A DNA stretch of 64,000 nucleotides from Pirellulales bacterium (GTDB lineage: Bacteria; Planctomycetota; Planctomycetia; Pirellulales; JBGAPH01). Where the stretch lies: contig JAXMBI010000030.1 of NCBI GenBank assembly GCA_046349955.1, positions 17,302 to 81,301 on the forward strand. Direction: 5' to 3'. Of the stretch, positions 274 through 32,240 are shown piece after piece (position 1 is the stretch's first letter; every line of letters starts with the position of its first letter). The notes under the pieces are model-generated. The model was not told the DNA's origin. It saw only the letters and a program-made list of their open reading frames with translations, and searched no databases. The position numbers and the translations under genes are program-made.

Positions 274-300
274 TTCCTTCGAGACGACAGGCAAGGCGCC

Positions 301-786
301 ATGGCGCGTGACAGCGAATCTCGCGAAGACCTGATGCGCGAGGCGACTGCGCTCGTGGTCCGCTGCGAACTCACGTTGCCGCACGAACCCGAGTCCATCG
401 TCGTCGGCTTTCGCGCCGATGGATGCGGCAGCGTCTACTGGGGCGAAGAGCCGGCCTATCACTTCAATACGCGCTGCGAGTTGCGCAGAGCCTATGTCAG
501 GGGCCTGCTGTTCAAGGCCGAAGGGGGACGGCTGGTGAGCTTGCGGCGCGAGCGGAGCGGGGGCCAGGTTTCGCTCGTGCGGCACGAGCTCGACGACTCG
601 GAACAGCAAACGCTGCTGGAGGCACTAGCGGCGCGGCAGGAGCGACTGCTGGCAGCTCTCCAAACGGGGCAGGCCGCGCTGGTTCGCCAGGTTCCGGAAG
701 CGGGCGAGGTGCGCGAGCGCGTGTGTCTCTGGCTCGCCTCGCTTCCGCGGCCAATCGGCGTTGCCATCGGGCCGCACGCTCGCTAA
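301..786 (+). CDS. hypothetical protein (161 aa)
   Basis: ATG-initiated ORF starting 28 nt after the preceding stop, with high GC3. The competing overlapping ORFs are Arg/Ala/Gly-rich shadows. I recognise no motif. Confidence 0.55.
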   Translation: MARDSESREDLMREATALVVRCELTLPHEPESIVVGFRADGCGSVYWGEEPAYHFNTRCELRRAYVRGLLFKAEGGRLVSLRRERSGGQVSLVRHELDDSEQQTLLEALAARQERLLAALQTGQAALVRQVPEAGEVRERVCLWLASLPRPIGVAIGPHAR

Positions 787-5479: not shown

Positions 5480-5858
5480 GCGCCGGCGAAAGGAAGGGAG
5501 GGGAGACGGCGGTCGGCACAGCGAGGGTCGACAATGATCCCGACAGCGCGCTCGGCATGCTATCATCCGATGCGGCTGGGCCGCACGTCAGCCGTCGCCC
5601 CTTGAAACGAGCCGAGCTCCTCGTGCTGCGTCACAGCTAGACGATGGGGTTGGCGAGTGGCGGGGTGTACCCCGCCGTGCCGCGCGCTGAGGAAATCGAG
5701 GCCTCCTGTACCGCGAGCCGTGATTGATTCGCTGCCAATTCCCACGACAAGTTGGCTGTGATCGTCGCTTCACTCGCTGAAGGAGTTTGTCGCCGCGGTA
5801 AGCCGGCGGCTCGCTGGGCCATTTGCTCCTCCGTCATGCGGACCCGAAAACGAGCGGT

Positions 5859-6406
5859 GACAAAAGCGCTAGTCGTTATGGTTCAGAAGCCCCCATTCGT
5901 AGTAAGTGTCGTCGATGCCGTAGTGAATCGACAACACAAAGGCGACCAATGTGGCGAGGCAAACCACCGCGCCCAGCCAGTCGGTCCAGGTCGGGCGCCA
6001 TTGCGACCGCACTCAAGGCGTGCGTCACAAGGTAGGCTAGAAACAACCCGCCGGCCAAGCGCTCGGCCTCCAGCCAGCCTGCGAGGCCCGCCGGAAAATA
6101 TAGCGCGGCAGGCAGCAGCCAAACCACCTCGCCAAAACCCAGCCGGCCGCGGCGGCCCCGCAGGTATTGCGCGCCGATGATCGCGGGGCCTGCAATCATG
6201 CCGTTGGCGAACCAGGCAGCACAATAGAACGACTGCCAACGCCCCCCTTCGCCGGCGAGCGTGCCAGCGCGAGCGATCGCCAATCCCGCCGCCGCCGCGC
6301 CGGTGAAAATCAGGGCATCCAGAATCGTCGGCCGACGAAACCGCCGGGCTGGCTCGTGTGCTTGAGTGGCTGGCTGATCGTTCATAGGCGGCTCCTGCGC
6401 AGTCAT
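5859..6406 (-). pseudogene. small integral membrane protein with an apparent frameshift (pseudogene or sequencing error)
   Basis: ORF 5876..6406 encodes TM-like segments and then, about 40 codons before its stop, turns into a low-GC3 Arg/His-rich tail. An adjacent frame from about 6012 to the stop at 5859-5861 has high GC3 and reads ...WTDWLGAVVCLATLVAFVLSIHYGIDDTYYEWGLLNHND, a clean TM helix. A TGA at 6013-6015 blocks that frame further upstream, so the frame switch must lie within about 5975-6012. Confidence 0.5.
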
Positions 6407-6439
6407 TGAGCTCGATCCAAGTCAGGGCGCACATCGCAG

Positions 6440-9010
6440 CTACTGTCCCGGCCCGGCAATCCGGCGCAGCCCTTCATGCGCGGCGTCTCGTGCTTCGGCG
6501 AACGCATCGTGCTCGAGTCGCTCGAGTTGCGGTTTGGCCACCTCGGCCTTTGGGCCCAAGTTGCCGAGGGTTCGAGCGGCCGACACGCGGACGGCCAGGT
6601 GGTCGTCGCTAAGCCGCGCGATGAGCGCCGAGACGGTCGCTGGCCGATCGTCGGACAAGCGACCGAGCGCCGTTGCAGCAGCGGCGCGCACGCGGAACGC
6701 GGGATCGGTCAAAGCCGTCGCCAGTTCATCGGCCGCAGGCAGGGCCGCGGCGCCGATGCCGCCAAGCGCGGTTGCGGCCCCCTCGCGCACGCGGCGGTTT
6801 TCGTCGTGCAGTCCTGCCCGCAAGCCTGGCACGGCGGGCTCGCCAATGGCCACTAAGGCCTTAACCGCGGCTTCGGCATCGCCAATACTTTGGCCTGCGT
6901 TCCCGAAGGCTTGAGTGACACAGTACCAGTCCTCCGAGCCGAGCATCTGGACCAGGCCGGGAACCGCGGGCGCGGCGGCAGGACCCAGCCGCGCGATAAC
7001 CTCGGCGACGCCCTGGGGCAGATCGTCCCGGCAAATCCGCGCGAGCGTCTGAATCACCGGCGGGCCGACCAAGCCCACTTCGACTAGCAGCTTGGCGCAA
7101 GCGAATTGCTCCGTCGCAGTTTCCTCTCTCCCTTTCCCCTCCGCCTGTTCCGAAAGTCCCGCGACCAGATCCTTTTCTGCGGCCTGAGCTTTTGGGCCGA
7201 GATTCCGCCAAGTCAAGGTCGCGTCGTCGTACTCGGGTGCATGCAACAGCATAGGGCCTGGACCGCGCAACGCCGCAGCCAGGCTGCGCACGGCAACCTG
7301 ATCGCCGGGATCGATCTTGACCAGAGCCGCCGCCCAGACGGCCTTATAGCTCGCGTGAAAGTGGCCGTTGAGCAGACGGCGCAACGTCGGCGAAATACTC
7401 GCTGCGCGAGTGCCCATGTCGCCCAGCGCCCTGACGAGCAATTCATCGACAGACTCGTCGGATTTCAACTCGAGTTCGAGAATCTCGAACAACCCCGGAT
7501 GATCAGGGTTGATCTTCGCGAGCGCGCACGCTGCCAAACGTCGCTTGGCCGGATCGGACACCAGGGGCTCGATCGCAGGAATTAGCTTCTTGCCTAGCGG
7601 CCCCAGCCTCCGGATCAATTCGAGCGCGGGACGCTCGATGCGGCGATCGATCACGATCTGCTCCAGCAGCGCCGCAGCGAGTTGATCTTGGGCCGGATTG
7701 AGCCGTTCGATCGCGTCGAGCGCCTGCTCGCCTGCTTCGTCGTTGAGCAGTCGCACCAACTGAGGGACCGCAGGCATCGCCGGCGGGCCCATTTGCCCCA
7801 AGCTATCGGCCGCGACGCCGCGCACAAAACTCTCCTGGTCGTTGAGCAGCGCAACGACCTCGGCAACAGCCGCAGCGTCGGCCTTCATGCGGCCAAGTTG
7901 TTGGACCGCGAGCGCGCGCACGATCCGATCTTTGTCATGCAACGCCCGCACGAGCGCTGGGCGCGCAGGTTCCCCGATCCTGCCCATGGCCGCGGCTGCA
8001 TGTTTGCCGACAATCCAGCCTCGATGAATGCCAGGCACAAAGTGCGACTGAGTGTCGCGAAGCGATCTCTCGAGAGGCTCCAGCGCGGTTGCCGCGCCCG
8101 CTCCCATGGCCCCCAAAGCGTCGGCCGCCGCGATTCGTTCGCCAAACACCGGACTGTCGAGCGCGCGGATCAACGCCGGAATCGCGACGGTTGCTTCTGG
8201 CCCGATCTTAGCCAATCGCTCGATGCCCGCATCGTGGTCATCGACGCTTGGGAATTCGCCGCTCGCGGGATTCGGAATAAAGATTTCGACGAGCGAAAGG
8301 AGCACCGGCACAAGTTTGTCGGCCGGCTCATCCAGTTCCCACAGCGACTCGGCGGCTGCTCCCTTCACGTCGGCAGACGCATCGCTGAGCAGAGATCGCA
8401 GCGCCTGGACAACGTCGTCGCGGCGAGCGGGCGTGACGGCGCCTAGAGCTTGCGCCGCCGCGGCCCGCACCTCCGCGGCTGGATCGCAGCAAGCGACCAA
8501 CAACGAGTCGATTGCAGATTTCGCTTTGAATCCCTGATCTTCGAGCAACTCCGCCGCCATTCTTTGCTGCTCGACGTCAGAAGCAGCGAGCGCCGCCGGC
8601 AGAGCCTCGATCGCCGCTTGATTCCCAGGCTCGCGATTGAGAATCGCTCGGGCGACCGTCACGCGAACGCCGGCGTTGGGGTATTCGAGAAGCACGCGGA
8701 GTTCGGCCGGAATCGTCTCGTTGCTCGGCGCAATGGTGGAGATGACGTCGAGCGCCACGCCTCGCGTTTCGGCGTCGGCGGTGGCAGCCAGATCGACCAC
8801 CAGCGGCAAGTGGTCGAGCGCGTCCTCGCGGCCTTCGTATAGATCGCTCAGACCCTCGAGCCGAACGTCGGGATCGGAACTATGGAGCTTTTCGAGCACC
8901 GAAGCCTGCGACTTTTCGACGGCGTCGTCCGGCTCATCGTCTTGCGTTTTGCCTACAGCGACCAGGCAGCCCGCAATTGCCAACGCCAAGAGAACGGCTC
9001 GGGGGTGCAT
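6440..9010 (-). CDS. HEAT-repeat (PBS-lyase-type) lipoprotein, 856 aa
   Basis: The N-terminus MHPRAVLLALAIAGC has a lipobox-like IAGC. There are more than 15 recurrences of the D-x-x-x-(V/R)R-x-x-A-A-x-(A/S)LG motif, for example DPAFRVRAAAATALGRL, DENRRVREGAATALGGIG, DHLAVRVSAARTLGNLG and ESFVRGVAADSLGQMG. Confidence 0.85.
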   Translation of the reverse strand: MHPRAVLLALAIAGCLVAVGKTQDDEPDDAVEKSQASVLEKLHSSDPDVRLEGLSDLYEGREDALDHLPLVVDLAATADAETRGVALDVISTIAPSNETIPAELRVLLEYPNAGVRVTVARAILNREPGNQAAIEALPAALAASDVEQQRMAAELLEDQGFKAKSAIDSLLVACCDPAAEVRAAAAQALGAVTPARRDDVVQALRSLLSDASADVKGAAAESLWELDEPADKLVPVLLSLVEIFIPNPASGEFPSVDDHDAGIERLAKIGPEATVAIPALIRALDSPVFGERIAAADALGAMGAGAATALEPLERSLRDTQSHFVPGIHRGWIVGKHAAAAMGRIGEPARPALVRALHDKDRIVRALAVQQLGRMKADAAAVAEVVALLNDQESFVRGVAADSLGQMGPPAMPAVPQLVRLLNDEAGEQALDAIERLNPAQDQLAAALLEQIVIDRRIERPALELIRRLGPLGKKLIPAIEPLVSDPAKRRLAACALAKINPDHPGLFEILELELKSDESVDELLVRALGDMGTRAASISPTLRRLLNGHFHASYKAVWAAALVKIDPGDQVAVRSLAAALRGPGPMLLHAPEYDDATLTWRNLGPKAQAAEKDLVAGLSEQAEGKGREETATEQFACAKLLVEVGLVGPPVIQTLARICRDDLPQGVAEVIARLGPAAAPAVPGLVQMLGSEDWYCVTQAFGNAGQSIGDAEAAVKALVAIGEPAVPGLRAGLHDENRRVREGAATALGGIGAAALPAADELATALTDPAFRVRAAAATALGRLSDDRPATVSALIARLSDDHLAVRVSAARTLGNLGPKAEVAKPQLERLEHDAFAEARDAAHEGLRRIAGPGQ

Positions 9011-21087: not shown

Positions 21088-21332
21088 CGCTGCGCGAGAA
21101 TCGGCTGGCGTGCGCCGTACGATCGGCAAGGCCGTTAGCCTCGGAACAAGAAATCTCGCACCCACGCCAAGTTGCAGCGATCGGCTGAAGTTTGCGTTGA
21201 CTCTCCCCTCAGAGGAAGTAGGTTTGCGGTGGACCGCGGCCAGATGCGGCGGTCCTCCTAAATGCTTTTCACGACCTCAAAACTCGGCCTTTTGTGGCCG
21301 CTAATCGCCCGATCCGTGGCAGGCAGGCTCCC

Positions 21333-21515
21333 ATGTTCAACGCAATCGCGCGATTCTGGCACGATGACGAAGGCACAACCTCGGTGGAGTACGCCGTGAT
21401 GCTGGCGCTGATTCTGGTCGCCATCATCGGCGCCATTGGCAGCGTGGGGGGCCGAACCGGCGGCATGTGGGGCGGCATCAACACCGACCTCACCTCGGCC
21501 GGCTTCGGCAGCTAG
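21333..21515 (+). CDS. flp: Flp-family type IVb pilin
   Basis: 60-aa product MFNAIARFWHDDEGTTSVEYAVMLALILVAIIGAIG... carries the Flp prepilin motif (G / TTSVEY plus a hydrophobic helix). ATG 21333 is preferred over the upstream alternative start at 21294. Confidence 0.85.
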   Translation: MFNAIARFWHDDEGTTSVEYAVMLALILVAIIGAIGSVGGRTGGMWGGINTDLTSAGFGS

Positions 21516-22600
21516 TCTGCGGGGCGGCGCCCGTCCCTCAGGCCCACGAATAGCCGCCGCCATTGTGCCCAGAGTTCCGCTGGGTTAGTCAGTTCGATTA
21601 CGCGATCTCGCCCTGCGCTGGCCAACCGCCCGCGCAGGGCGTTGTTTTGCGCGAGCCGGCCGATCAGCGCCGGTACGTCGGCCGGCTCCGCGGCCAAGAG
21701 GCCGTGTTGTTCCGGAACGAGCATCTCGCGCCACCCCCAGGCATGCTGCACAACCAAGGGTGTGCCGCTGGCCAGGGCCTCGAGGCCGACGCGCGGCCAA
21801 TTCTCCTGGGCGCCGCCATTCACTTGCGCCAAGCAGTGCACTGAGCGCAAGAACTGATCGGCCGGTTCCCCTCCAGGCGGCAACGCCTCGGCCCAACTCG
21901 GGGGCGGCCCCAGCTTCTCTTGCACCTGATCGCTCCAGCCGAGCACCCGCACCTTGAACGGCCGGTAGGGGACCGCCGCGAACAACTCCCAGGTGTCTGG
22001 GTGAAACTTCGAGGGATCGGCGCGCGAGATTCGGCCGACGATGAACTCCTCGCCTGCCGCGTGGGGCAAGGGCCGGAAGGCGAAGTCGGCAAGGTCGAGC
22101 GCTCCGTGGATCAAGTGGCACTGCGCGGGCGACACTCCATAGCGCGTGAGCGTCGGGAGCAGGTTCTCCCGCTGAAATCGCGACTGAAATACATGCGCGT
22201 CGAACGGACCGTACTGTTCGTAGTGCCGCTCTTCCTCGGTGAAGATCCAGGTCATGCAGTTCGCCCAGACGAGCCGGCAACCGAGCGCGCGGAGGTCCCC
22301 GGCCCGGCGGAGAAACTCGTCGTTGCAGAACGACACGACGATCGCGTCCGCCAGACCAGGGACCGAGGCCAGCTCTGCGGGCCCCTCGATCTCGCAGGTG
22401 CGCAACCCCAACGTGTCGCACCGCCGCCGCCACTCGGGCGGGGTGCGCCACGTGGGGATGAGCGTGACCTCGAGGCCGTGGCTGCGCCACAGTTTGAGGA
22501 CGTGCCAGAGCTCGGTGTCAGCGCCGCCCAGCGCACTGGGATAGCCCACGACGAAGATCGGGGGCAGCCCCTGTTCGGCCGCGGCAAACGATGCCGACAT
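21512..22600 (-). CDS. GT-B fold glycosyltransferase (GT4-like)
   Basis: 362 aa. The C-terminal half carries the sugar-donor pocket pattern ENWPRVGLEALASGTPLVV (E-x7-E-like). The stop shares the palindrome CTAG with the flp stop. Confidence 0.75.
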   Translation of the reverse strand: MSASFAAAEQGLPPIFVVGYPSALGGADTELWHVLKLWRSHGLEVTLIPTWRTPPEWRRRCDTLGLRTCEIEGPAELASVPGLADAIVVSFCNDEFLRRAGDLRALGCRLVWANCMTWIFTEEERHYEQYGPFDAHVFQSRFQRENLLPTLTRYGVSPAQCHLIHGALDLADFAFRPLPHAAGEEFIVGRISRADPSKFHPDTWELFAAVPYRPFKVRVLGWSDQVQEKLGPPPSWAEALPPGGEPADQFLRSVHCLAQVNGGAQENWPRVGLEALASGTPLVVQHAWGWREMLVPEQHGLLAAEPADVPALIGRLAQNNALRGRLASAGRDRVIELTNPAELWAQWRRLFVGLRDGRRPAD

Positions 22601-22640: not shown

Positions 22641-23027
22641 TCAGCAAGTCACGCTGGCCTGGCACTTGCCGGTGAACGTCTTGCTGGCTAAGTCGTAGAT
22701 CACCGATCCCCCGGACGACGAAGACGTGGAAACGGGATACTCGGCCCAGACACAGATCTTGTTGTCAGGATAGGGCGCGTTCGGAGAGCACTGCGCCGTG
22801 CCCACCAGACCCAGACTGTAGTCGCCGTTGGCGTCGGGCGCTACATTCGCCGAACCGGCAGGCGGGCTCGCGCTGCACGTCCCGCTCGAGGAGATGATCT
22901 TCGCATAGACCTTGGTGGCTACGGTGCCCAGCTTGATCGCGCCGCCCCCCTTGACGCATACCAAGTTGCCGTTAGCGCAGTCGCAAGGGGTCTCCGCTCC
23001 GATCGGGCTGGTGATTGAGAGCGCCAT
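22641..23027 (-). CDS. Cys-rich small hypothetical protein (128 aa)
   Basis: ATG 23027 is preceded by GAAAGGAAG, which is SD-like, with a 4-nt spacer. GC3 is high, including the 56 nt that overlap the kinase 3' end. It has 8 Cys residues and Ser/Gly-rich stretches. There is no signal peptide and no recognisable family. Confidence 0.5.
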   Translation of the reverse strand: MALSITSPIGAETPCDCANGNLVCVKGGGAIKLGTVATKVYAKIISSSGTCSASPPAGSANVAPDANGDYSLGLVGTAQCSPNAPYPDNKICVWAEYPVSTSSSSGGSVIYDLASKTFTGKCQASVTC

Positions 23028-24960
23028 GCAGCTTCCTTTCGTTCCCTTGAAGCAACCAAAAACGGTGGAACCGCGTGGTTCCGATCCCGTTCAGGAGTCC
23101 GATGCCGCCTGGCCAATAGTGAGGACGATGCCGGTTGCCGTCGCGCACCAGCTTAGGGAGTTCCTGGCCGTCCCAGTAAACCTTGGTCAACCCGGTCTGA
23201 TCGATCGCGAGGTCAAGCGAGTGCCGTGTGCCAGGTTTCGGCATAGGCACGCTCTCAAAGGCGAATCCTTCGCTCCTGTGCCCCTCGCTCATCCCACTTT
23301 CGAAGGTGTACCAATACAGGCTGAGTTTTCGCTCTGGGTCGTCGGCCGCCCCCGGGCTCAGCAAGATGGCTTGATGGCTCCAGGAGGCTGGAAACTCCTG
23401 GCTGGGCACGGCGCCGAAGAAAATGCCGCTGTGGTGGAACCATTCCTCTTGAGACAACTCGAGATGCAAGGTGAAGGGGCCTTCGGGAGGCTCCTTCAAG
23501 GTCAGCCACCCCGCGCTCTGCACAGAGGTGGCAATATACCCGCCCTCATCCTGCGGATCGGGATCGAATTTGGCGCGCTCCGCAAAGGTTGCGTGATCCA
23601 AAAAGGGCGCAGGATACGCTGCAAGCAGATCCTTCACGATCAGCGGCTCGCGATACGACCGCACGATGCCTAAGAGCACGATCAATGCGAGCATGCCCAA
23701 GGCGACCACTTCGCCGCGCTTGAGCCGCCGAAGACGATTTCCGGCGGCCTCGCGCAGCAGTGTGGGCCGGACGGCAAAGGTGCTTCCCTGCACGTCGCTC
23801 TCGGTGCTAATTCCGCGCGCGAGGCGTCCCCGCACGAGCTCTCCCAGATTCGCGCCCTGGGCAAAGGGAGCGAGCCGCTCCGCCACCGCGCCCATCGAAG
23901 CGGTTCGCTCGCCCGGTGTCTTGGCCAGCATCTCTCTCAACAGCAACGCCAGGCCTTCAGGCACGTCGTCGCGGCGCGAACGGACATCGGGCGCCGCCGT
24001 TTCCAAGTGGGCTTTCATCCGCTCGAACGTGTCGCGCCCCTCCGCCTGAAACGGCGCTTGGCCGGTGAGCAGCTTGAAGAGCGTGCAGCCGAGCCCATAG
24101 ACGTCGGTCCGCGCGTCGACCGCCTCCGCCCGCCACTGCTCGGGGGCCATGTAGTCGGCCGTGCCTGAGCGATCGCCAGCTCCGCTGGCCAGGGAGGCGA
24201 GTCCCAGATCAAGCACTTTGACCTGCCCCGAATCGGAGACGAGCAAGTTCGAGGGCTTTACGTCGCGATGAACCACCTCGAGGCGATGGGCGGTTTCCAA
24301 ACCCGCCGCGGCCTGGCGGACGACCTCGCAAGCTTCGGCGATGGGCAGCGGCCCGCCGTCGAGCATCAGACGGCGCAAATCGACGCCGGCGACGTGCTCC
24401 ATGACCAGGTAGTGGTGCCCATCAGCTTCGCCCGCGTCGTGGGCCAAGATGACGTGCGGATCGGCGAACTTGCCGATCATTTCCATCTCGCGATGGAACC
24501 GCGCGATGGCCTCGGCGTCGGCCAGCCGCTGCGGGGCGAGGAATTTGATCACGACCCGCCGCTTGAGCCGCACGTGCTGGCCCAGGTAGACGCTGCCCAT
24601 GCCGCCCTGGCCGATAAAGTCGCCCAGCAGATAAGGGCCGAACTGCCGCGGGAAGGGCCGGGTTTCCACGGGCTCGCCCTGGCCCGGATCGCGCGCCTTG
24701 AGTTCGTGTCGGAGGAGGGACAGCTCCGCCGACTCGACAGGGGCGGTAGTCGCGTCGCCGCTGGTCTCGCCGCGAATGAGGCCGACAACCGAGTCGCTGG
24801 CGTCGTTATGGGCTTGGAGAAACTCCTGGCAGCGAGAGCACTGCCCCACATGGTGGGCCACCGCCACCAGGCGCTCTTCTTCGAGCTTGCCTACGCTCAG
24901 CGCGACGAGCTCATGGTTGGGCGGGCATCGGAGCGCTGGCTGATCCGCTGGCGTCTTCAT
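22972..24960 (-). CDS. transmembrane Hanks-type Ser/Thr protein kinase with an N-terminal ZAS-like anti-sigma motif and a C-terminal DUF1080/LamG-like sensor domain
   Basis: Kinase motifs are IGQGGMGSVYLG, VIKFL, HRDVKPSNLLV, DLGLA and GTADYMAPEQ. The TM helix is VVALGMLALIVLLGIV. N-terminal residues C12, H37, C41 and C44 form HxxxCxxC. The C-terminal ...GGIGLLNGIGTTRFHRFWLL resembles the end of DUF1080 domains; that assignment is tentative. Confidence 0.9.
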   Translation of the reverse strand: MKTPADQPALRCPPNHELVALSVGKLEEERLVAVAHHVGQCSRCQEFLQAHNDASDSVVGLIRGETSGDATTAPVESAELSLLRHELKARDPGQGEPVETRPFPRQFGPYLLGDFIGQGGMGSVYLGQHVRLKRRVVIKFLAPQRLADAEAIARFHREMEMIGKFADPHVILAHDAGEADGHHYLVMEHVAGVDLRRLMLDGGPLPIAEACEVVRQAAAGLETAHRLEVVHRDVKPSNLLVSDSGQVKVLDLGLASLASGAGDRSGTADYMAPEQWRAEAVDARTDVYGLGCTLFKLLTGQAPFQAEGRDTFERMKAHLETAAPDVRSRRDDVPEGLALLLREMLAKTPGERTASMGAVAERLAPFAQGANLGELVRGRLARGISTESDVQGSTFAVRPTLLREAAGNRLRRLKRGEVVALGMLALIVLLGIVRSYREPLIVKDLLAAYPAPFLDHATFAERAKFDPDPQDEGGYIATSVQSAGWLTLKEPPEGPFTLHLELSQEEWFHHSGIFFGAVPSQEFPASWSHQAILLSPGAADDPERKLSLYWYTFESGMSEGHRSEGFAFESVPMPKPGTRHSLDLAIDQTGLTKVYWDGQELPKLVRDGNRHRPHYWPGGIGLLNGIGTTRFHRFWLLQGNERKLHGALNHQPDRSGDPLRLR

Positions 24961-25564
24961 GATTCGTCGCCTGGCGATTCGCTCTTAAGTGACGGATAAC
25001 GCGCGATCTAATGACATAGACGGTTGCGAGCTTCAGGTCGTAGCGGGCCGCCAATTCGTGCGCGGTCGACGTGCCGTTCACCATTTCGCGGCAGATGATC
25101 CAATCGCGGTCGCTCACCTCGGCCCGCAGCCGGTCGATTTCTGCCTGACGCCAATCGAGGTCGTCCTCTTCTTCCCTGGGAGAAGGCAAACTGTGGAGCC
25201 GAACCAGGGCCTCGGAGCCGCCCTCGGCGACGCCTACGCGGCGTTTCCGCCGCCGTTCTTCGTCGAGCGCCTTTCTTGCCGTAATCTGCCGCAGCCAGCC
25301 GCGGAACGTGTCGGTGTCTCGATCATGGCGGTACTGTTCGAGATTTGCCATCACGGCGGACAGCGCCTCTTGGACGACGTCACGGGCGTCGTTCGGCGGC
25401 ACTCCGTATTTCAGGCACCACGAGTAGATCGTGTTCGCGTACTTGTCGACCAACTCATTCCACGCTGACGGGTCGGCGGCGACCGCCTTTCGCAGCAGCG
25501 AGGTCGAGGTCCCGCTCAAGCCATCGTGCGGCCCTCTACCATCATTAACGTTTGGACCTGTCAT
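24911..25564 (-). CDS. ECF-type RNA polymerase sigma-70 family factor
   Basis: Region 2 reads DARDVVQEALSAV ... FRGWLRQITARKALD. The region 4 helix-turn-helix reads AHELAARYDLKLATVYVIRSRVIRHLR. The 3' end overlaps the kinase start by 50 nt. Confidence 0.9.
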   Translation of the reverse strand: MTGPNVNDGRGPHDGLSGTSTSLLRKAVAADPSAWNELVDKYANTIYSWCLKYGVPPNDARDVVQEALSAVMANLEQYRHDRDTDTFRGWLRQITARKALDEERRRKRRVGVAEGGSEALVRLHSLPSPREEEDDLDWRQAEIDRLRAEVSDRDWIICREMVNGTSTAHELAARYDLKLATVYVIRSRVIRHLRANRQATNHEDASGSASAPMPAQP

Positions 25565-25965
25565 GATTTTTCCAAAACGGTTCCGAGGCAGATCCTTCTG
25601 ATGCTAACGACCGGGCTTTCTCCCGCAACAGGGGGGGTGTTTTCAAAATCGTGTTAGATCCGAACGTTAATAGTAGTAGGGAATGCCATTTCCCACCCCA
25701 CAGTTCATGTTTGCGAGGACCGGGCCTCCGTGGGCCGCCCCGCCTTGGGGCGGCCCACTTTTCGACTCTCGCGAGCGGCAAAACCGTTCGGAGGCGAATT
25801 GTTTTTGTGTAGTGTATGCGTGTTGCGTATCTTGGCTCTGCCGGAGGGAACTCGTTGCCGGGTATGGCGTACGAGCTCCCTTTTCCCGTCATCAGGTCGC
25901 GCGCTTGGTTCTACGTCTTGCCGGGTGCAACGATTTGATTGCGGCTTCAACCGCTTAGGCATACG

Positions 25966-27450
25966 ATGGCGCGGGCGGGCGCCATCGGAGCCAAGCGGAG
26001 GATCGTCGTGCGGGTTTCCCTAGGACTATCGATTCAACGAGCTTTCCTCGCCCTCGCCTGCCTTGTGGCGGTCGGCGGTTTCCCCGGCCCTCTTCTCGGA
26101 CAAGAGCTCTCGGTTGGAACCGCTCAGGTAGAAATCACGCCGCCGCGCGGCATGCGCATGTGCGGCTACTTCTTCGAACGGCTGAACACCGGCACGCATG
26201 ACCCCCTCTGGGCCAAGGCCCTCGTCTTCCAGCAGGGCGACGTGCGGGCAGCGCTGGTGTTCTGCGATCTGATCGGGTTGCCGCGCGCGGTCACGCAGCG
26301 GGCGCGCCGCGACGCCGCGATCAAGACGGGCATCCCGGCCGATAACATTCTGGTCGCCGCCACCCACAGCCACACCGGCCCGCTCTACTTTGACGCTCTT
26401 CGCGACTTCTACCACTCCCAGGCCGTGGGACATTTCGGGCAAGATGCGGCGGAGCCGGTCGACTACTCCGCCGTGCTAGCCGGCAAGATCGTCGCCGCGG
26501 TCGAGGCTGCCCACAAAGCCGCCAAGCCGGCAACGCTGGCGGCGGGCGTCGCGCAACAGCGTGGCCTGTCCTTCAACCGCCGCTTCCATCTCCGCGACGG
26601 TTCGGTGGTCTTCAATCCGGGCAAGCTCAACCCGAACATCGTTCGCCCAGCCGGTCCGATCGACCCGGATCTTGGGCTGGTAGCCGTGCGAGACGCCGCT
26701 GGCCAAACCGAGGCCGTGCTCGCCGTGTTTGCCCTTCATCTCGATACGGTCGGCGGCACAGACTATTCCGCGGACTACCCCTTCTACTTGGAGCGGGGGC
26801 TGCAAACGGCGTTGGGGCCGCGCGTGGTTTCTTTATTCGCGGCCGGAACCTGCGGCGACATCAACCACATCGACGTGACGCACGACCGCCCCCAAGGCGG
26901 TCAGGCGGAGGCCGAGCGGATCGGCAGCGCACTATCTGCCACAGCAACGAGCACGCTCGCCAATTTGCCTCCAATCGCAAACCCCTCGCTGGCGGTGCGG
27001 CGGGCGATCGTCGAAGCGCCGCTGCAGACTTATCCTCCAGAGCAGCTCGAAGCCGCCCGCCAACGGCTGCCGGAGGTCGGGCGCCGGCTGATGCCGTTCC
27101 TGGAGGAGGTCGAGACGGTCAAAATCGTGGACCTCGAGCGTCTTGGCGGGCAGCCCAACTACCCGCTCGAGACCCAGGTGTTTCGGTTCAGCGACGAGGT
27201 GGCGGTCGTGGGGCTGCCCGGGGAGGTCTTCGTCGAGTTGGGACTCGCCATCAAGGCCGCTTCGCCCTTCCCGACGACGCTTGTGATCGAGCTGGCCAAC
27301 GACGACCCGGCTTACATTCCCACGCGCAAGGCCTTCGCCGAAGGGAGCTACGAAACGGTCAACTCGCGGGTGCAGTCGGGGAGCGGCGAGCAACTCGTCG
27401 AGGCGGCGGTGCGGCTGCTCAAGGAGCTGGCGGTCCGGCCCGATAAATAG
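25966..27450 (+). CDS. neutral/alkaline ceramidase-like hydrolase (secreted)
   Basis: Signal-like segment AFLALACLVAVGG. The N-terminal domain pattern is GYFFERLNTGTHDPLWAKALVF ... LVFCDLIGL ... ATHSHTGP, which is characteristic of the non-lysosomal ceramidase N-terminal domain. This is a call from memory. Confidence 0.7.
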   Translation: MARAGAIGAKRRIVVRVSLGLSIQRAFLALACLVAVGGFPGPLLGQELSVGTAQVEITPPRGMRMCGYFFERLNTGTHDPLWAKALVFQQGDVRAALVFCDLIGLPRAVTQRARRDAAIKTGIPADNILVAATHSHTGPLYFDALRDFYHSQAVGHFGQDAAEPVDYSAVLAGKIVAAVEAAHKAAKPATLAAGVAQQRGLSFNRRFHLRDGSVVFNPGKLNPNIVRPAGPIDPDLGLVAVRDAAGQTEAVLAVFALHLDTVGGTDYSADYPFYLERGLQTALGPRVVSLFAAGTCGDINHIDVTHDRPQGGQAEAERIGSALSATATSTLANLPPIANPSLAVRRAIVEAPLQTYPPEQLEAARQRLPEVGRRLMPFLEEVETVKIVDLERLGGQPNYPLETQVFRFSDEVAVVGLPGEVFVELGLAIKAASPFPTTLVIELANDDPAYIPTRKAFAEGSYETVNSRVQSGSGEQLVEAAVRLLKELAVRPDK

Positions 27451-27644
27451 CCTGAAAAACGCACACACTAATCGTCCTATCCGATTGGTAAATAACGACT
27501 TGCGCTATGACATGCCGGCGGGTCGGCTGTTTGGGGAAGTTCTGTGTAACACTTTGCTCCGCTTCTCGCTGGTGCTGTTAGAGACGGCAAACAGCCCGCC
27601 ACGGTGGCCAGGGCCGCCGTGGCGAACGAAAGCGAGAGTGAGCA

Positions 27645-28889
27645 ATGAAAAGCCTCTGGACCAAGTTTTTGACGGGCATCGCGGTTGCGGGAACGTTGAT
27701 CGGCAGCACGGCTTCGGCCGCCGGCCATAAGGGGTTCAGCTTTGGGGGCGGCGGAGGCGGCGGCAACTCGATGCGGTCGCAGAGTTTCAGCGGCAACCTG
27801 GGGAACGCCCTGAAGATCAACTCGAACCTGAACCAGAACCAATTCAAGGCCCGCACGCTGGGCAACGTTTCCGGCAGCCAATTCCAGAGCCTCTCGAAGG
27901 GCCTGAAGGCGGGCAACCAGTCGTTCGGCCAGAAGTTCGGCTCGCAGATCGGGACCAACCAGAACCAGTTCAAGGGTCTGCAGCGCGTTGGCCAGCTCAA
28001 CGGCCAGAACGGCAAGTTGCTCAACCAAATGTTCCACGGCGCCCAGACCTTCCAAGGGAACAAAGGCCTGCAGAAGGTCAATGGCTTGCCAGGGCTCGTC
28101 GGCGGCCAGTTCGGCAAGCAGCAGTTCAACCCCGCAAAGTTCAACGGCCTGACCAAGCAGAACAACTTCTTCGGAAGCTTCGGCAATCACCCCAACAAGT
28201 CGAACAAGAGCTTCTGCTTCGGCAACAGCGGCTGGTGCGGCTGGAACAACTGGTACAACCCCTGGTGCTACCGCCCGTACTGCTACAACTACAACTCCTG
28301 CTACGGCTACCCGTACTACTGCGGCTACCCCGTCTACAACAGCTACCCTGTCTACAACAACACGGTGACCTATGTGACGCCGGCTCAGCCGGTGGCGACC
28401 GAGCCGGCCCCGCAGCTCCCCTTGGCCGACTTGCTGCTGACCGATCTGCGGTTGATGGATCCGGGCAACGGGACCGACCTGGGCCCGCGGTTCCTGCTGA
28501 CGATTGCCAACCAAGGTCCCTCGGTTTCGCCTCCCTTCCAAGCGGGGATCGCGGCCGCGGTCAGCCAGGAACAGCTCGGCTCAGCGGTGAAGGCCGCCGC
28601 CCAAGTGGGGCCGATCCAGACTGGCCAGACCACGACCGTGGAGATTCGGCTGCCGGTGCAGGTTCTTGGCCTGCCGAGCCCCAACGGCCCGACGCTGTTC
28701 GGAGTGCTTGGTGTTTCGCTGGATGAGCTGAACCAGGTGGACGAGCTCGACGAGCAGAACAACGGCGCCCTTGTGAGCCGCGACCAAATTCAGCCCCTGC
28801 AAGCCGCCCCGGCCCCGCAAGGCCCGACGGCCAACCTGGCCGCGAACGGCCCGAGCGTTCCGCCGATGCTGAGCCTGCCCCCACAGTAA
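27645..28889 (+). CDS. secreted low-complexity protein: Q/N/G/F/K-rich region, Cys/Tyr/Trp/Asn-rich segment and CARDB-like domain
   Basis: Signal peptide MKSLWTKFLTGIAVAGTLIGSTASA. Residues about 30-190 are rich in N, Q, G, F, K and S, with NQNQFK occurring twice. Residues 189-238 read SFCFGNSGWCGWNNWYNPWCYRPYCYNYNSCYGYPYYCGYPVYNSYPVY. Residues about 259-376 look like CARDB (DLLLTDLRLMDPGNG ... LLTIANQG ... VDELDEQNN). A strong terminator follows. Confidence 0.8.
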   Translation: MKSLWTKFLTGIAVAGTLIGSTASAAGHKGFSFGGGGGGGNSMRSQSFSGNLGNALKINSNLNQNQFKARTLGNVSGSQFQSLSKGLKAGNQSFGQKFGSQIGTNQNQFKGLQRVGQLNGQNGKLLNQMFHGAQTFQGNKGLQKVNGLPGLVGGQFGKQQFNPAKFNGLTKQNNFFGSFGNHPNKSNKSFCFGNSGWCGWNNWYNPWCYRPYCYNYNSCYGYPYYCGYPVYNSYPVYNNTVTYVTPAQPVATEPAPQLPLADLLLTDLRLMDPGNGTDLGPRFLLTIANQGPSVSPPFQAGIAAAVSQEQLGSAVKAAAQVGPIQTGQTTTVEIRLPVQVLGLPSPNGPTLFGVLGVSLDELNQVDELDEQNNGALVSRDQIQPLQAAPAPQGPTANLAANGPSVPPMLSLPPQ

Positions 28890-28918
28890 CCCTTGCCACG
28901 AACGCCTGCCCTTCTCCA

Positions 28919-28968
28919 CCGCGGCGATCCCCGAGCGAAAGCTTGGCGGGTCGCCGCGGTTTTTTTTG
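28919..28968 (+). terminator. rho-independent terminator
   Basis: 12-bp stem CCGCGGCGATCC / GGGTCGCCGCGG with one G-U pair, an inner mini-hairpin, then TTTTTTTTG. It lies 30 nt after the stop at 28889. Confidence 0.8.
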
Positions 28969-29044
28969 TTGGGAGATGGGGCGGGAGCGCCCGCGCGTTA
29001 GGATGAGATGCAAAAGGAACTCGGGTCACCGAGTTGCGTGCATC

Positions 29045-29881
29045 ATGCCTGAAGCAGACCGGTCGATCACCCGCGAAGACCGCATGAGCGACTTGCGATC
29101 ATCGATCGCCGGTCTGTACGCGGTTTTCGGCGCCTATGGCTGGATCCGCGGCCGGGAGCTGCGCGCGTTGCGAAGCGCGGGTGAGGAGCCTCCGACGGCC
29201 GTGTTCGAGAAGGATCTGCGCGAGGTCAGCGCCGAGGACCTGCGCTCGCATCGCAACTGGAGCATGGGCCGGTCCGGGTTAAGCGAGTGTCTCGATAGCT
29301 TGGAGCGAACCAAGTATCTGCTGCCGCGTGTCCTCGAGCTTTTCGGGCAGACTGCAGTCGCGGAGACCGCCGAATCCATTCCGGCCTACGAGATTACTTC
29401 CAAGCTGATCGAGTACGCTTGGTGGGACTGGCCGGATGCCGAGCATGCCAGCGTGCGGCGCTGGATGGACGCCGTCTATTTGCTTCTCTTCACCAGGACG
29501 CCGGCGGAGCGGTGGGCAGGATTGCCCACCCCGGACGACTGGCTCGATAAGGTCTTGGCATGTGATCGTGACGTATCTCGCTGTCTTGAAGCTTGGTGGA
29601 GCCTAGCGTGCCCGGCCGACGTAGTCGCTGCGTCTCGAACCTTTCTCCTCGCTTGTGACAACAGCCTAATCGGCACGGGGCCATTCCCGAGGCCGCTCGC
29701 AGCGCCCCCGGATCCTGAATGGCCGGCAATAAAACAAATCGCGGCCTTCTACTGCGAGCGGCGCATGCGAGATCGCTGGGAAGCCTTGTTCTTCGCGGAG
29801 ACGATTGATCCGAAGGACCGGCAAGACCTTGCCAGGGCAGTCGACGCCTGGGATCAATGCTATGCGCGCCCTGCCGCCTGA
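29045..29881 (+). CDS. hypothetical protein (about 278 aa)
   Basis: Long ORF with coding-type GC3. ATG 29045 is preferred; the extension to 28943 runs through the upstream terminator. It is Trp/Asp-rich (WWDWPDAEH, WWSLACPAD). I recognise no family. Confidence 0.6.
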   Translation: MPEADRSITREDRMSDLRSSIAGLYAVFGAYGWIRGRELRALRSAGEEPPTAVFEKDLREVSAEDLRSHRNWSMGRSGLSECLDSLERTKYLLPRVLELFGQTAVAETAESIPAYEITSKLIEYAWWDWPDAEHASVRRWMDAVYLLLFTRTPAERWAGLPTPDDWLDKVLACDRDVSRCLEAWWSLACPADVVAASRTFLLACDNSLIGTGPFPRPLAAPPDPEWPAIKQIAAFYCERRMRDRWEALFFAETIDPKDRQDLARAVDAWDQCYARPAA

Positions 29882-29908: not shown

Positions 29909-31018
29909 CTAAGGCCGCGCAACCAGGTTTCCGCTCAACCGCTTCACCAGCCGCCGCATCTCCAGAATGGAGAGCGTGCTCAGCACCTGGGGCGTCGTCA
30001 GTCCGCTCTTGGCGATCACCTGGTCGATCGTCAGCGGGTCGAGCGTAATCGTGCCCAGCACCTGTTGTTCGATTTCGTTGAGCAGCAGTTCCGCCGGATG
30101 GTGAATTGGCGGGCCTTCGTCGGCCCGCGGCGCGGCCTCCACGAGCGGGCCCAGTTCTTCGAGCACGTCGTCGGCCGATTCCACGAGCTTCGCGCCGTCG
30201 CGAATCAGCCGGTGGCAACCGTGCGACATGCGATTGTCGACCCGTCCCGGCACGGCGAACACCTCGCGCCCCTGCTCCGTGGCGTGGCGCGCCGTGATCA
30301 GAGCGCCGGAATGCACCGCGGCCTCTACTACAATTACGCCGAGGCTCATGCCGCTGATGATCCGATTACGTTGCGGGAACGAGCCGGCGACTGGCGCCGC
30401 CCGCACCGGCGTTTCGGTGAGCACGGCCCCCTGGGCGGCCACTTCGCCGGCCAGTTCTTTGTGTTCGGGCGGGTAGATGTCGACGAGCCCGCCCCCCAAC
30501 ACGGCCAAGGTGCGGCCGCCGGCGGCCAGGGCGCCGCGATGGGCCGCGGCGTCGATGCCGCGGGCGAGGCCGCTGATGATCGTGAGCCCAGCCCGCGCCA
30601 GGCTGGCCGCCAGCCGTTCGGCCTGGGCAAGGCCGTACTGCGTGGCATGCCGGGAGCCGACGATGGCGATTCCCAGGGCATCCTGCGGCGCGAGTTCGCC
30701 ACGCACGAAGAGCAGGCCCGGCGGATCGGGAATCTCGCGGAGCGACCGCGGATACGCGTCCGACTCGAGCGGCACGAGCGCGATGCCGTGCTGCCGGCAA
30801 ACGGCCAGTTCCTGATCGACATCGATTTCCTCGAGCGCCGCCGCGATCCGCAGGCTCAGCTTGCGGCCGATGCCGGGCACCTCGCCGAGTTGGGCTGGCG
30901 GCGCCCTCAAAATGGCCTCGGGCGAGCCAAACCGGGCGAGCAGTGCCTGCCGCAGCCGCGGGCCGACGCCTGAGACGAGGCTGAGCCGTAGGACCGATTC
31001 GAGATTGGGCTCGGCCAT
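29909..31018 (-). CDS. dprA: DNA-processing protein DprA (SMF family)
   Basis: N-terminal SAM/HhH-like segment (LSLVSGVGPRLRQALLARFGSPEAIL). Rossmann core GIAIVGSRHATQYG ... IISGLARGIDAAAHRGAL ... AVLGGGLD..YP. C-terminal winged helix. Start placed at ATG 31018. Confidence 0.9.
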   Translation of the reverse strand: MAEPNLESVLRLSLVSGVGPRLRQALLARFGSPEAILRAPPAQLGEVPGIGRKLSLRIAAALEEIDVDQELAVCRQHGIALVPLESDAYPRSLREIPDPPGLLFVRGELAPQDALGIAIVGSRHATQYGLAQAERLAASLARAGLTIISGLARGIDAAAHRGALAAGGRTLAVLGGGLVDIYPPEHKELAGEVAAQGAVLTETPVRAAPVAGSFPQRNRIISGMSLGVIVVEAAVHSGALITARHATEQGREVFAVPGRVDNRMSHGCHRLIRDGAKLVESADDVLEELGPLVEAAPRADEGPPIHHPAELLLNEIEQQVLGTITLDPLTIDQVIAKSGLTTPQVLSTLSILEMRRLVKRLSGNLVARP

Positions 31019-31337
31019 GCTCGTGCGTCTGACCCAAGGAATTCGACCCTGCCCGACGCCGCTTCGAGCCAGGCCCCCCAGAATCCCCCTGTGGCAGGGC
31101 TGAGTCAAGCGAAGGCGCGACGAAGCCTGCGTTGCCGGCACACGGTAAATCCGTCTCCAACCTTCGGCGCAGCGGACGGTGCCGGTTACTGCAAAAACCC
31201 GCTCCAAAGGGCATTGCCGCCCCGCGGGAAGGCCGCTAAACTATTGAGTTTTACGCCCCTTGGCCCCGGCAATTTCGCCGTGCGGGCCGGGCGCCCTTCC
31301 CGAGGAGACTCCGCGGCTGACGCGGTGGTGGTGAACG

Positions 31338-31781
31338 ATGTCCAAGACGACCTACATGGCCAAGCCCGGCGAACTGGAAGCCCAATGGTGGCTCGTGGAC
31401 GCGGCCGATCAGGTGGTAGGTCGCCTGGCCGCCGAAATCGCCACGGTGCTCATGGGCAAGCACCGCCCCACCTACACCCCGCACGTCGACACGGGCGACT
31501 TCGTGGTTGTGGTGAACGCCGAAAAGGTGGTCTTCACTGGCCAGAAGTGGCAGAAGAAGCAATACAAGTGGTTCACCGGTTACCGCGGTCTCCGCTCGGA
31601 GACTGCGGGCGACCGCCTGCAGCGCCGCCCCGAAGAGATTCTGCGTGAAGCGGTGCGCCGCATGCTGCCCAAGAACAAGCTGGCCAGCAAAATGCTCGAC
31701 AAGCTCAAGCTGTATGTGGGCGACCAACACCCGCACCAGGCCCAACTTCCCCAGCCGCTCGAACTGCCGGCCAAGGCCTAA
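31338..31781 (+). CDS. rplM: 50S ribosomal protein L13
   Basis: WWLVDAADQVVGRLAAEIATVLMGKHRPTYTPHVDTGDFVVVVNAEKV ... YVGDQHPHQAQ is the canonical L13 sequence pattern. Confidence 0.97.
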   Translation: MSKTTYMAKPGELEAQWWLVDAADQVVGRLAAEIATVLMGKHRPTYTPHVDTGDFVVVVNAEKVVFTGQKWQKKQYKWFTGYRGLRSETAGDRLQRRPEEILREAVRRMLPKNKLASKMLDKLKLYVGDQHPHQAQLPQPLELPAKA

Positions 31782-31835
31782 GGCGTTCGCCGCTCGGCTT
31801 CCCAACTCACTTCCTTCGGACCGCAGGCTGCAGTC

Positions 31836-32240
31836 ATGGTAGATACGAAGACCGCGAACGACATTCTGGGCACCGGCCGCCGCAAGACCTCGGTGGCGCG
31901 CGTGCGGCTTCGTCCGGGGTCGGGCGTGATCACCGTGAACGGCCGCCCGTTCGAGGAGTACTTTACGATCGATCAGGATCGCCGCAACGTGCTGGCCGCC
32001 CTCGACGGCACCGGCCGCCGCAACGACTTCGACGTACTGATCCGCGCCGACGGCGGTGGCAAGACAGGCCAATCGGGCGCTTGCCTGCTGGGCATCGCAC
32101 GGGCTCTAAAGAAGCTCGACCAGGACGCGGAAACGGTCCTTCGCCAGCAAGGCCTGCTCACCCGCGACGGCCGCATGAAGGAACGCAAGCACTACGGTCT
32201 CCGCGGCGCCCGCCGGGGAACGCAGTTCTCGAAGCGTTAA
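31836..32240 (+). CDS. rpsI: 30S ribosomal protein S9
   Basis: GTGRRKTSVARVRLRPGSGVITVNGR ... GGGKTGQSGA ... LTRDGRMKERKHYGLRGARRGTQFSKR is the canonical S9 sequence pattern. It lies immediately downstream of rplM. Confidence 0.97.
   Translation: MVDTKTANDILGTGRRKTSVARVRLRPGSGVITVNGRPFEEYFTIDQDRRNVLAALDGTGRRNDFDVLIRADGGGKTGQSGACLLGIARALKKLDQDAETVLRQQGLLTRDGRMKERKHYGLRGARRGTQFSKR

Follow-up and report, generated by a model that had tools for sequence, protein, structure and literature searches.

Planctomycete envelopes are unusual, and few envelope proteins are identified in the literature searched; the cysteine-rich YTV cell-wall proteins of Planctomycetia are one example (PMC8567305; PMC12673574). 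Each planctomycetal genome carries about 40 extracytoplasmic function (ECF) sigma factors (PMC7826278), and those that are linked to a Ser/Thr kinase and lack an anti-sigma factor form an established class (PMC7826278; PMC8999054). The gene described here bears on both subjects. It lies in a 64,000-nucleotide stretch of a Pirellulales metagenome-assembled genome (MAG), referred to below as the window, and its product is identical to NCBI MFO0900424.1, which is annotated as a 'hypothetical protein'. The protein is predicted to be exported and consists of a long, polycationic low-complexity arm, a block rich in aromatic residues, Asn and Cys, and a C-terminal CARDB domain. A Ser/Thr kinase gene and an ECF sigma factor gene lie nearby.

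The closest structural relatives of the C-terminal domain are the CARDB proteins (PF07705) of Methanosarcina acetivorans (MA_4588, 2L0D) and Pyrococcus furiosus (PF1109, 3IDU), which it resembles in profile and fold and with which it has the terminal D..N.V.E.DE.NN motif in common. The layout differs. The known multi-domain arrangement occurs in only one of the top 150 family representatives (P0019, with about a dozen tandem copies), whereas the protein studied here has a single acidic CARDB domain at its extreme C-terminus, behind a long cationic arm that is predicted to be disordered. Its subfamily also adds a conserved MLSLPPQ tail, unlike the known CARDB proteins. With the YTV proteins it shares restriction to planctomycetes, predicted export and the presence of Cys, Pro and Tyr in a candidate envelope protein (PMC8567305; PMC12673574). 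Unlike in the YTV proteins, Cys is not conserved in its family, and since no Pfam family besides CARDB is matched at E ≤ 10, the protein has no YTV domain. The kinase-linked ECF systems (ECF43 EcfP/PknT and EcfK/PknS; planctomycetal ECF59-62 and ECF217; PMC7826278; PMC8999054) are matched by the window in the overlap of the sigma factor and kinase genes, here by 50 nt, in that no anti-sigma gene is seen, and in an adjacent gene with an AAC-N16-CG promoter-like motif. The sigma factor of the window is not of the ECF43 type, as it carries DARD at the sigma-2.2 position in place of the STTA of ECF43 members. No link between the kinase-linked ECF systems and the present protein family was found described in the literature searched; the CARDB domain itself was already known there, but its architecture in this family, the family size and the ECF/kinase link were not described.

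The analysis defines an unnamed family with a simple, testable architecture that comprises some 400 representative clusters or more, and for one subfamily it adds a candidate circuit in which a leader hairpin and a conserved promoter-like motif go together with a kinase-linked ECF sigma factor. Tentatively, and at somewhat less than an even chance, we take the gene product to be an inducible envelope matrix or adhesive protein, a reading that is mostly an inference. The coordinates of all features are collected in Table 1.

Architecture and conservation of the protein

The boundaries of the open reading frame (ORF) are exactly those of an earlier first-pass annotation, which had been made without database searches. 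The mature protein has a mass of about 41 kDa. Overall identity to the orthologs ranges from 49% to 94%; it is 49%–55% in four other assemblies and highest for the closest ortholog, from another Pirellulales MAG (locus L005). Comparison of these two closest genes gave a ratio of nonsynonymous to synonymous substitution rates (dN/dS) of 0.11 overall, 0.11 for the low-complexity arm and 0.05 for the CARDB domain. Insertions or deletions between them affect only the length of a poly-Gly run and the number of copies of an 18-bp repeat encoding SYPVYN, apart from a two-residue insertion in the tail. Ortholog conservation together with the dN/dS values excludes a spurious ORF. Asn, Gln, Lys and Phe are encoded mostly by the codons ending in G or C (AAC 38/40, CAG 28/38, AAG 16/18, TTC 20/22), and the GC content at third codon positions (GC3) is 0.87, compared with 0.83–0.84 for rplM and rpsI in the same window. 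The codons used are thus those preferred by the host, with a GC3 at least equal to that of ribosomal protein genes, and the unusual composition is therefore encoded with preferred codons. Taken with the orthologs and the dN/dS of 0.11, the sequence data indicate a native gene under selection at the protein level, which is what the first-pass annotation had concluded from the same codon usage.

The N-terminus reads directly as a signal peptide with n, h and c regions (MKSLWTK-FLTGIAVAGTLIG-STASA/AG) and an A-x-A motif, and it is kept in all orthologs. The proposal that the protein begins with a signal peptide is thereby upheld, and Sec-dependent export is predicted.

The C-terminal domain is established as a CARDB domain with an Ig/Fn3-like β-sandwich fold. 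This had been suggested from the sequence, with a CARDB profile as the proposed check. When the isolated domain is searched against the Pfam hidden Markov model for CARDB it scores 23.6 bits (E 6.1e-5; gathering score 22.7 bits), and the whole protein, at 20.9 bits, falls short of the gathering score. Of 30 diverse relatives 28 match CARDB, the best of them at E 1.5e-12, and a search of the PDB with a profile of the domain retrieves the solved CARDB structure 2L0D at E 5e-5. The AlphaFold model, built from a 30-sequence alignment, is a β-sandwich with a mean predicted local distance difference test (pLDDT) score of 91.8. Foldseek matched this model to the CARDB structures 3IDU and 2L0D with template modeling (TM) scores of 0.58–0.71, normalised to the target, and also to Fn3-like domains of glycoside hydrolase family 3 (GH3) enzymes. 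Acidic residues predominate in the domain (12 D/E, 4 K/R), and the isoelectric point (pI) of the CARDB part is about 4.1.

In charge the arm (residues 27–190) is the opposite of the domain. Its 164 residues include 18 K/R (about 11%) and no D/E, and the wider N-region (residues 27–253) has a pI of 9.8. The composition of the arm (G 20%, N 14%, Q 13%, F 10%, K 9%, S 9%, L 9%) agrees with the original description of some 160 residues dominated by N, Q, G, F, K and S, and the units described as recurring are each present twice, NQNQFK at residues 63 and 105 and GxQF at 77 and 153. Residues 1–259 were modelled by AlphaFold, from a 5-sequence alignment, without secondary structure and with pLDDT <50, and the arm is accordingly predicted to be intrinsically disordered. 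Among the long orthologs it is 53%–66% identical at aligned positions, versus 71%–74% for the folded domain, and several of its motifs are conserved (KGFSFGGGG, LNQNQFK, NLSKxLK, NSNQFK, GGQFG..FNPAKFNG and SNKSFFFG). The arm is therefore constrained in sequence and not in composition alone. The conservation of the low-complexity region, which the first-pass annotation had singled out as something its reading depended on, is thus found, both in ortholog identity and in the dN/dS of 0.11. The K/R residues are spaced more evenly than in shuffled sequences (coefficient of variation 0.51 versus 0.87, p 0.006), and the aromatic residues show the same trend (p 0.04–0.1); both classes recur every 9–10 residues or so. 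The arm has no Pfam match and no PDB sequence match at E ≤ 10. A family for it was also sought in NCBIfam and Pfam, where the sole match, a repeat from ribosomally synthesized and post-translationally modified peptides (RiPP; E 1.2), was judged to be noise.

Between arm and domain lies the aromatic block (residues 191–240), with 26% Y, 18% N, 12% C and 8% W. The six Cys residues that had been counted here are present; the accompanying estimate of about 60% aromatic residues plus Asn was too high, since the 49-residue string quoted for it contains 53% F+W+Y+N. The block includes the 18-bp tandem repeat, encoding (G/S)YP(V/Y)YN, at 28303–28358. Apart from a 9-bp unit in two copies, this is the only tandem repeat in the gene, and its copy number differs in L005, as does the length of the poly-Gly run. 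L005 keeps all six Cys, and the other long orthologs have 3, 1 and 1. At the position of the block, two long orthologs have a long His/Asp run (e.g., HHHDHHDHGHHDHHDDHHHGHHHHH) and a third a shorter one. The stretch WWGWNDPWCY..YP.YGSYPYYN, which follows the His/Asp run in the orthologs, is conserved. In the C-terminal tail, P406, L409, S410, L411 and P412 are invariant in the alignment of close orthologs (A1). The (V)P.MLSLP.Q ending is limited to the long and short paralogs and is absent from distant family members, and it could be a recognition or sorting motif.

The extent of the family was determined with a full HMMER search of the family profile against 1.84 billion representative proteins, which returned 412 representatives at E<1e-3, of which 109 reached E<1e-10. 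Most members outside the group of closest relatives have only the C-terminal domain in common with the present protein. The domain ends within 5 residues of the C-terminus in 114 of 149 representatives, and in 30 one extra domain of about 70–90 residues follows it. The regions upstream of the domain are polar and of low complexity, with a median of 69% disorder-promoting residues. The upstream arm has a net positive charge in 93 of 121 representatives (median +10) and the CARDB domain a net negative charge in all 121 (median −7). All six close relatives show the same polarity, with a pI of 9.5–10.6 for the N-region and 4.1–4.4 for the C-region. In 70 of 121 representatives, the 90 residues that precede the domain are rich in His, Cys, aromatic residues or Pro (His ≥10% in 14, Cys ≥5% in 32). 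An IDPGFGNG-like motif before the junction block was seen in 12 representatives; the present protein has FNPAKFNG at residues 161–168. By these sequence characters, a cationic arm, a His/Cys/aromatic/Pro block and a terminal acidic CARDB domain together mark a large planctomycetal family without a name. None of its members is informatively named or was traced to a cultured strain: searches for named or cultured relatives of the CARDB domain gave only metagenomic fragments called 'hypothetical', 'CARDB' or, wrongly, 'subtilase'. One distant member has the planctomycete-typical genes PSCyt2, PSD1 and DUF1501 as neighbours. The CARDB-terminal genes of a more distant subfamily form tandem arrays, with two to four adjacent genes in each (L028, 4147–10690; L031, 5001–7095), and some of these array genes appear to be frameshift-split in long-read assemblies.

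A short paralog (321–325 residues) appears to be present in each genome examined. In MAG JBGAPH01 it is on a contig other than that of the long gene, and the MAG of the window appears to encode such a paralog as well (MFO0899163.1). The short form retains the Gly run together with the basic arm, CARDB domain and MLSLP tail, whereas the His/Cys block and the greater part of the N/Q region are missing. In locus L006 a TssK-like gene is found within a few kb of the short paralog, which adjoins a sigma-54-type activator.

Promoter-like motif, leader hairpin and the sigma factor/kinase pair

In seven loci the DNA sequence of roughly the 100 nt before the start codon is conserved. This region opens with a promoter-like motif, GTAACA-N14-TCGCT, that is, AAC-N16-CGC, which is the general shape of ECF promoters. 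In an alignment of the seven loci (A3) both boxes are invariant and their spacing is fixed, and the spacer varies in sequence. The motif is found once per locus, upstream of the family gene only. ECF regulons are recognised by a conserved upstream promoter of the type AAC-N16/17-CG(T), and the seven copies of GTAACA-N14-TCGCT conform to it. No sigma-70-like promoter was found in 27400–29100.

Downstream of the motif, the conserved leader contains a 10-bp hairpin. The segment 27545–27660, which includes the leader, folds with a dG of −52.3 kcal/mol and a z-score of −4.09, and in the paralog lineage the hairpin shows one compensatory change from AU to GC and two GU wobbles. In a search of 25400–29100 against Rfam, matches were at chance level only, with none on the leader. 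The leader could stabilise the mRNA or be regulatory. Both motif and hairpin also occur upstream of the unlinked short paralog, which argues for co-regulation of the two genes. When the leader pattern was used to scan metagenomes, 16 stretches were retrieved, one of them real (L003) and 15 due to chance, so that no new loci were added. An intrinsic-terminator-like hairpin with a T run follows the stop codon and implies a monocistronic unit. The downstream gene (28943–29881) was considered as a further member of the unit and rejected, as it is not conserved beside the orthologs.

The sigma factor gene is divergent from the family gene. The order glycosyltransferase, kinase, sigma factor and divergent family gene is found in the window and in L001, L003/L004 and L008. 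Across the wider family, an ECF sigma factor gene lies within a few genes of the family gene in 3 of 9 independent contexts. The estimated chance of finding one no more than three genes away is about 4%, and the association is therefore an enrichment and not a rule. At a distant family member (L027) sigma factor, family gene and kinase follow one another on one strand, with a sigma factor unrelated to that of the window; the L027 family gene is frameshift-split and the contig has a coverage of 1.9x. In L026 an ECF sigma factor lies near another distant family member.

A candidate envelope matrix or adhesive protein, and alternatives

In the reading that we favour, the kinase would sense an envelope or surface cue and activate the ECF sigma factor, which would in turn drive strong expression of both the long gene and the unlinked short paralog. 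Once exported, the CARDB domain may serve as a folded anchoring or oligomerising module, perhaps in a cation-dependent manner. The polycationic arm could bind anionic polymers of the envelope or extracellular space, or the acidic CARDB domains of neighbouring molecules. Cohesion might come from the aromatic block, through π-π and cation-π stacking, with disulfides in this protein or His-metal bridges in its orthologs. The outcome would be a cohesive envelope-matrix or adhesive layer. Its mode of action would be the sticker-and-spacer cohesion of mussel foot proteins and phase-separating low-complexity domains and not that of a templating prion.

Such a comparison, drawn from general knowledge, extends to mussel foot proteins, the low-complexity regions of hnRNPA1 and FUS, and GLFG nucleoporin domains. 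All have G/N/Q/S spacers with regularly placed aromatic and basic residues, and the Tyr/Trp/Asn/Gly-rich block and predicted disorder of the present protein appear analogous; for mussel foot proteins, the extracellular setting would also be similar to the predicted one. The likeness is one of composition only, without homology, and unlike the members of this set the protein has Lys as its main charge and no conserved FG. The broader idea of the first-pass annotation, a self-associating extracellular matrix or adhesive component, is therefore plausible as an inference. If it is true, the family would provide bacterial, extracellular sticker-and-spacer cohesive proteins as well as a concrete target gene for an ECF sigma factor under kinase control; should it be wrong, a 'hypothetical protein' is still better annotated. 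A more specific version is improbable: here the dipolar proteins would form an attachment or fibre matrix (holdfast or crateriform-associated), a coacervate-like adhesive hardened by disulfides or metal and analogous to mussel foot, switched on by the ECF sigma factor/kinase pathway at surface contact or under envelope stress.

Several points weigh against the matrix or adhesive interpretation. The disorder of the arm is called from an AlphaFold model with a 5-sequence alignment. Export is predicted from the signal peptide, and a location beyond the periplasm is an extrapolation. The Cys and His content of the block varies among orthologs, and any single cross-linking chemistry would therefore be lineage-specific. 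On the regulatory side, adjacency is what ties the promoter-like motif to the sigma factor, and ECF adjacency is limited to the 3 of 9 contexts given above. No copy of the motif was found before the sigma factor gene itself, and autoregulation through it is therefore unsupported.

It is unlikely that the protein instead binds or buffers divalent metals in the periplasm or at the surface, chelating them with the His/Asp or Cys block and the acidic CARDB motif. The His/Asp runs of the orthologs would suit this role, as would the His- and Cys-rich blocks in part of the family, the deposition of 3IDU with di-metal ions, and a CzcB-like gene that adjoins the ortholog in L001. The metal-efflux neighbour is not conserved, however, and the arm of the present protein contains only 3 His. 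Short paralogs have neither the His run nor Cys, the Cys of an exported protein are likely oxidised, and the long conserved cationic arm would be left unexplained.

We give a similarly small likelihood to a functional amyloid or prion-like assembly, in which the arm would form extracellular cross-β fibrils like curli, Fap or a yeast-type prion. The arm does consist of 27% Q+N and 29% G+S with regularly spaced aromatics, and the protein is predicted to be extracellular or periplasmic; in predicted export and in Q/N/G/S richness it resembles CsgA, Fap and the Q/N-rich prion domains of yeast. The classic Q/N-rich prion-like criterion is at least 30 Q+N in an 80-residue window. The maximum here is 26 (residues 49–128), and although the long orthologs approach the threshold with 27–29, the short paralogs reach just 14–16; the Q/N-rich prion label was rejected for all three groups. 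A prion-like domain should also be low in charge, but the arm has 18 K/R among its 164 residues, with as many as 10 in a stretch of 80 and an even spread along its length. Repeats of the curli type, imperfect and 19–23 residues long, are absent; the only tandem repeat counted in this respect is the SYPVYN unit. Neither curlin nor Fap families were among the Pfam matches at E ≤ 10, where CARDB stands alone, and there is no PDB match. No β-solenoid appears in the AlphaFold model of residues 1–259 (5-sequence alignment), and the conserved neighbourhood showed no genes for amyloid secretion. The prion-like or amyloid character proposed in the first-pass annotation is thus not borne out.

A further alternative is a three-component module in which the transmembrane kinase would control the ECF sigma factor and the secreted protein would be a ligand or co-sensor for that kinase. 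The one-strand order in L027, where the sigma factor is unrelated to that of the window, and the conserved divergent adjacency in the close subfamily would fit such a module. We nevertheless regard it as rather improbable: the paralog with the same promoter-like motif is unlinked, 6 of 9 contexts are without a sigma factor or kinase, and family genes form tandem arrays in L028 and L031. The strong codon bias, too, is more in keeping with an abundant structural product than with a sensor.

Least likely by far is an FG-nucleoporin-like selective phase, a sieve-like hydrogel in an envelope pore, since the 7 FG dipeptides (3.2 expected, p 0.024) in an N/Q/G/S-rich context and the invariant GFSFG are offset by counts of 7, 6, 3, 1, 3 and 3 across the six close relatives, which fall to 3 and 1 in long orthologs, by a density of only about one FG per 30 residues and by a highly basic arm; the FG-type cohesive domain proposed earlier was rejected on these counts.

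Features of the locus and neighbouring genes

Table 1. Features of the locus, with positions in the window unless another locus is named
Feature	Position	Strand	Remarks
Family gene	27645..28889	+	ORF of 414 aa
Signal peptide, residues 1-26	27645..27722	+	MKSLWTKFLTGIAVAGTLIGSTASAA; Sec/signal peptidase I (SPase I) type (predicted); lipobox Cys absent
Polycationic polar low-complexity arm, residues 27-190	27723..28214	+	Contains GFSFGGGG, NQNQFK x2, FNPAKFNG
Aromatic/Asn/Cys block, residues 191-240	28215..28364	+	Includes 18-bp (SYPVYN) tandem repeat
Pro/Val/Thr/Ala linker, residues 241-258	28365..28418	+	
Acidic CARDB β-sandwich, residues 259-378	28419..28778	+	Ends in LDELNQVDELDEQNN
Pro/Ala/Gln-rich C-terminal tail, residues 379-414, plus stop codon	28779..28889	+	Ends (V)P.MLSLP.Q
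ECF-type promoter-like motif	27546..27570	+	GTAACA-N14-TCGCT (AAC-N16-CGC)
Motif + leader region	27546-27644		Window
Motif + leader region	7902-8000		L001
Motif + leader region	7902-8000		L003
Motif + leader region	284-385		L002
Motif + leader region	5902-6000		L005
Motif + leader region	5688-5787		L006
Motif + leader region	6228-6326		L008
5' leader hairpin	27598..27623	+	GCCACGGUGGCC-AGGG-CCGCCGUGGC; 10 bp, in conserved leader ~27578-27644
Intrinsic-terminator-like hairpin then T run	28944..28966	+	
Short paralog	5788-6753		L006
Short paralog			P0005 = NCBI MFO0899163.1
ECF sigma factor gene, candidate regulator	24911..25564	-	Sigma70_r2 and TIGR02937 matches; divergent from family gene
Transmembrane Hanks-type Ser/Thr kinase gene	22972..24960	-	Pkinase E 1e-46
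Glycosyltransferase family 1 (GT1) gene	21512-22600	-	
Flp/Fap-type pilin-like ORF	21294-21515	+	Contains EGTTSVEYAVMLALILVAIIGAIG; adjoins GT1 glycosyltransferase gene
Conserved 127-aa ORF, several Cys	22641-23027	-	Between glycosyltransferase and kinase genes; no Pfam match
Ceramidase-like exported protein gene	25939-27450	+	Ceramidase_alk N-terminal match, E 5.6e-9

The ceramidase-like gene lies between the sigma factor gene and the family gene in the window and in L008 and is absent from this place in L001, L003 and L004. The 127-residue ORF is probably a real gene, as it is 50% identical to an ORF at the same position in L008 (1304–1705, reverse strand). Beyond the locus, at 29909–32240, are ORFs that from their translations alone we take to be DprA-like (reverse strand) and rplM- and rpsI-like (forward strand). 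Flp_Fap genes are also found at the same place as the pilin-like ORF in L001, L003 and L004, which hints at a surface or adhesion theme.

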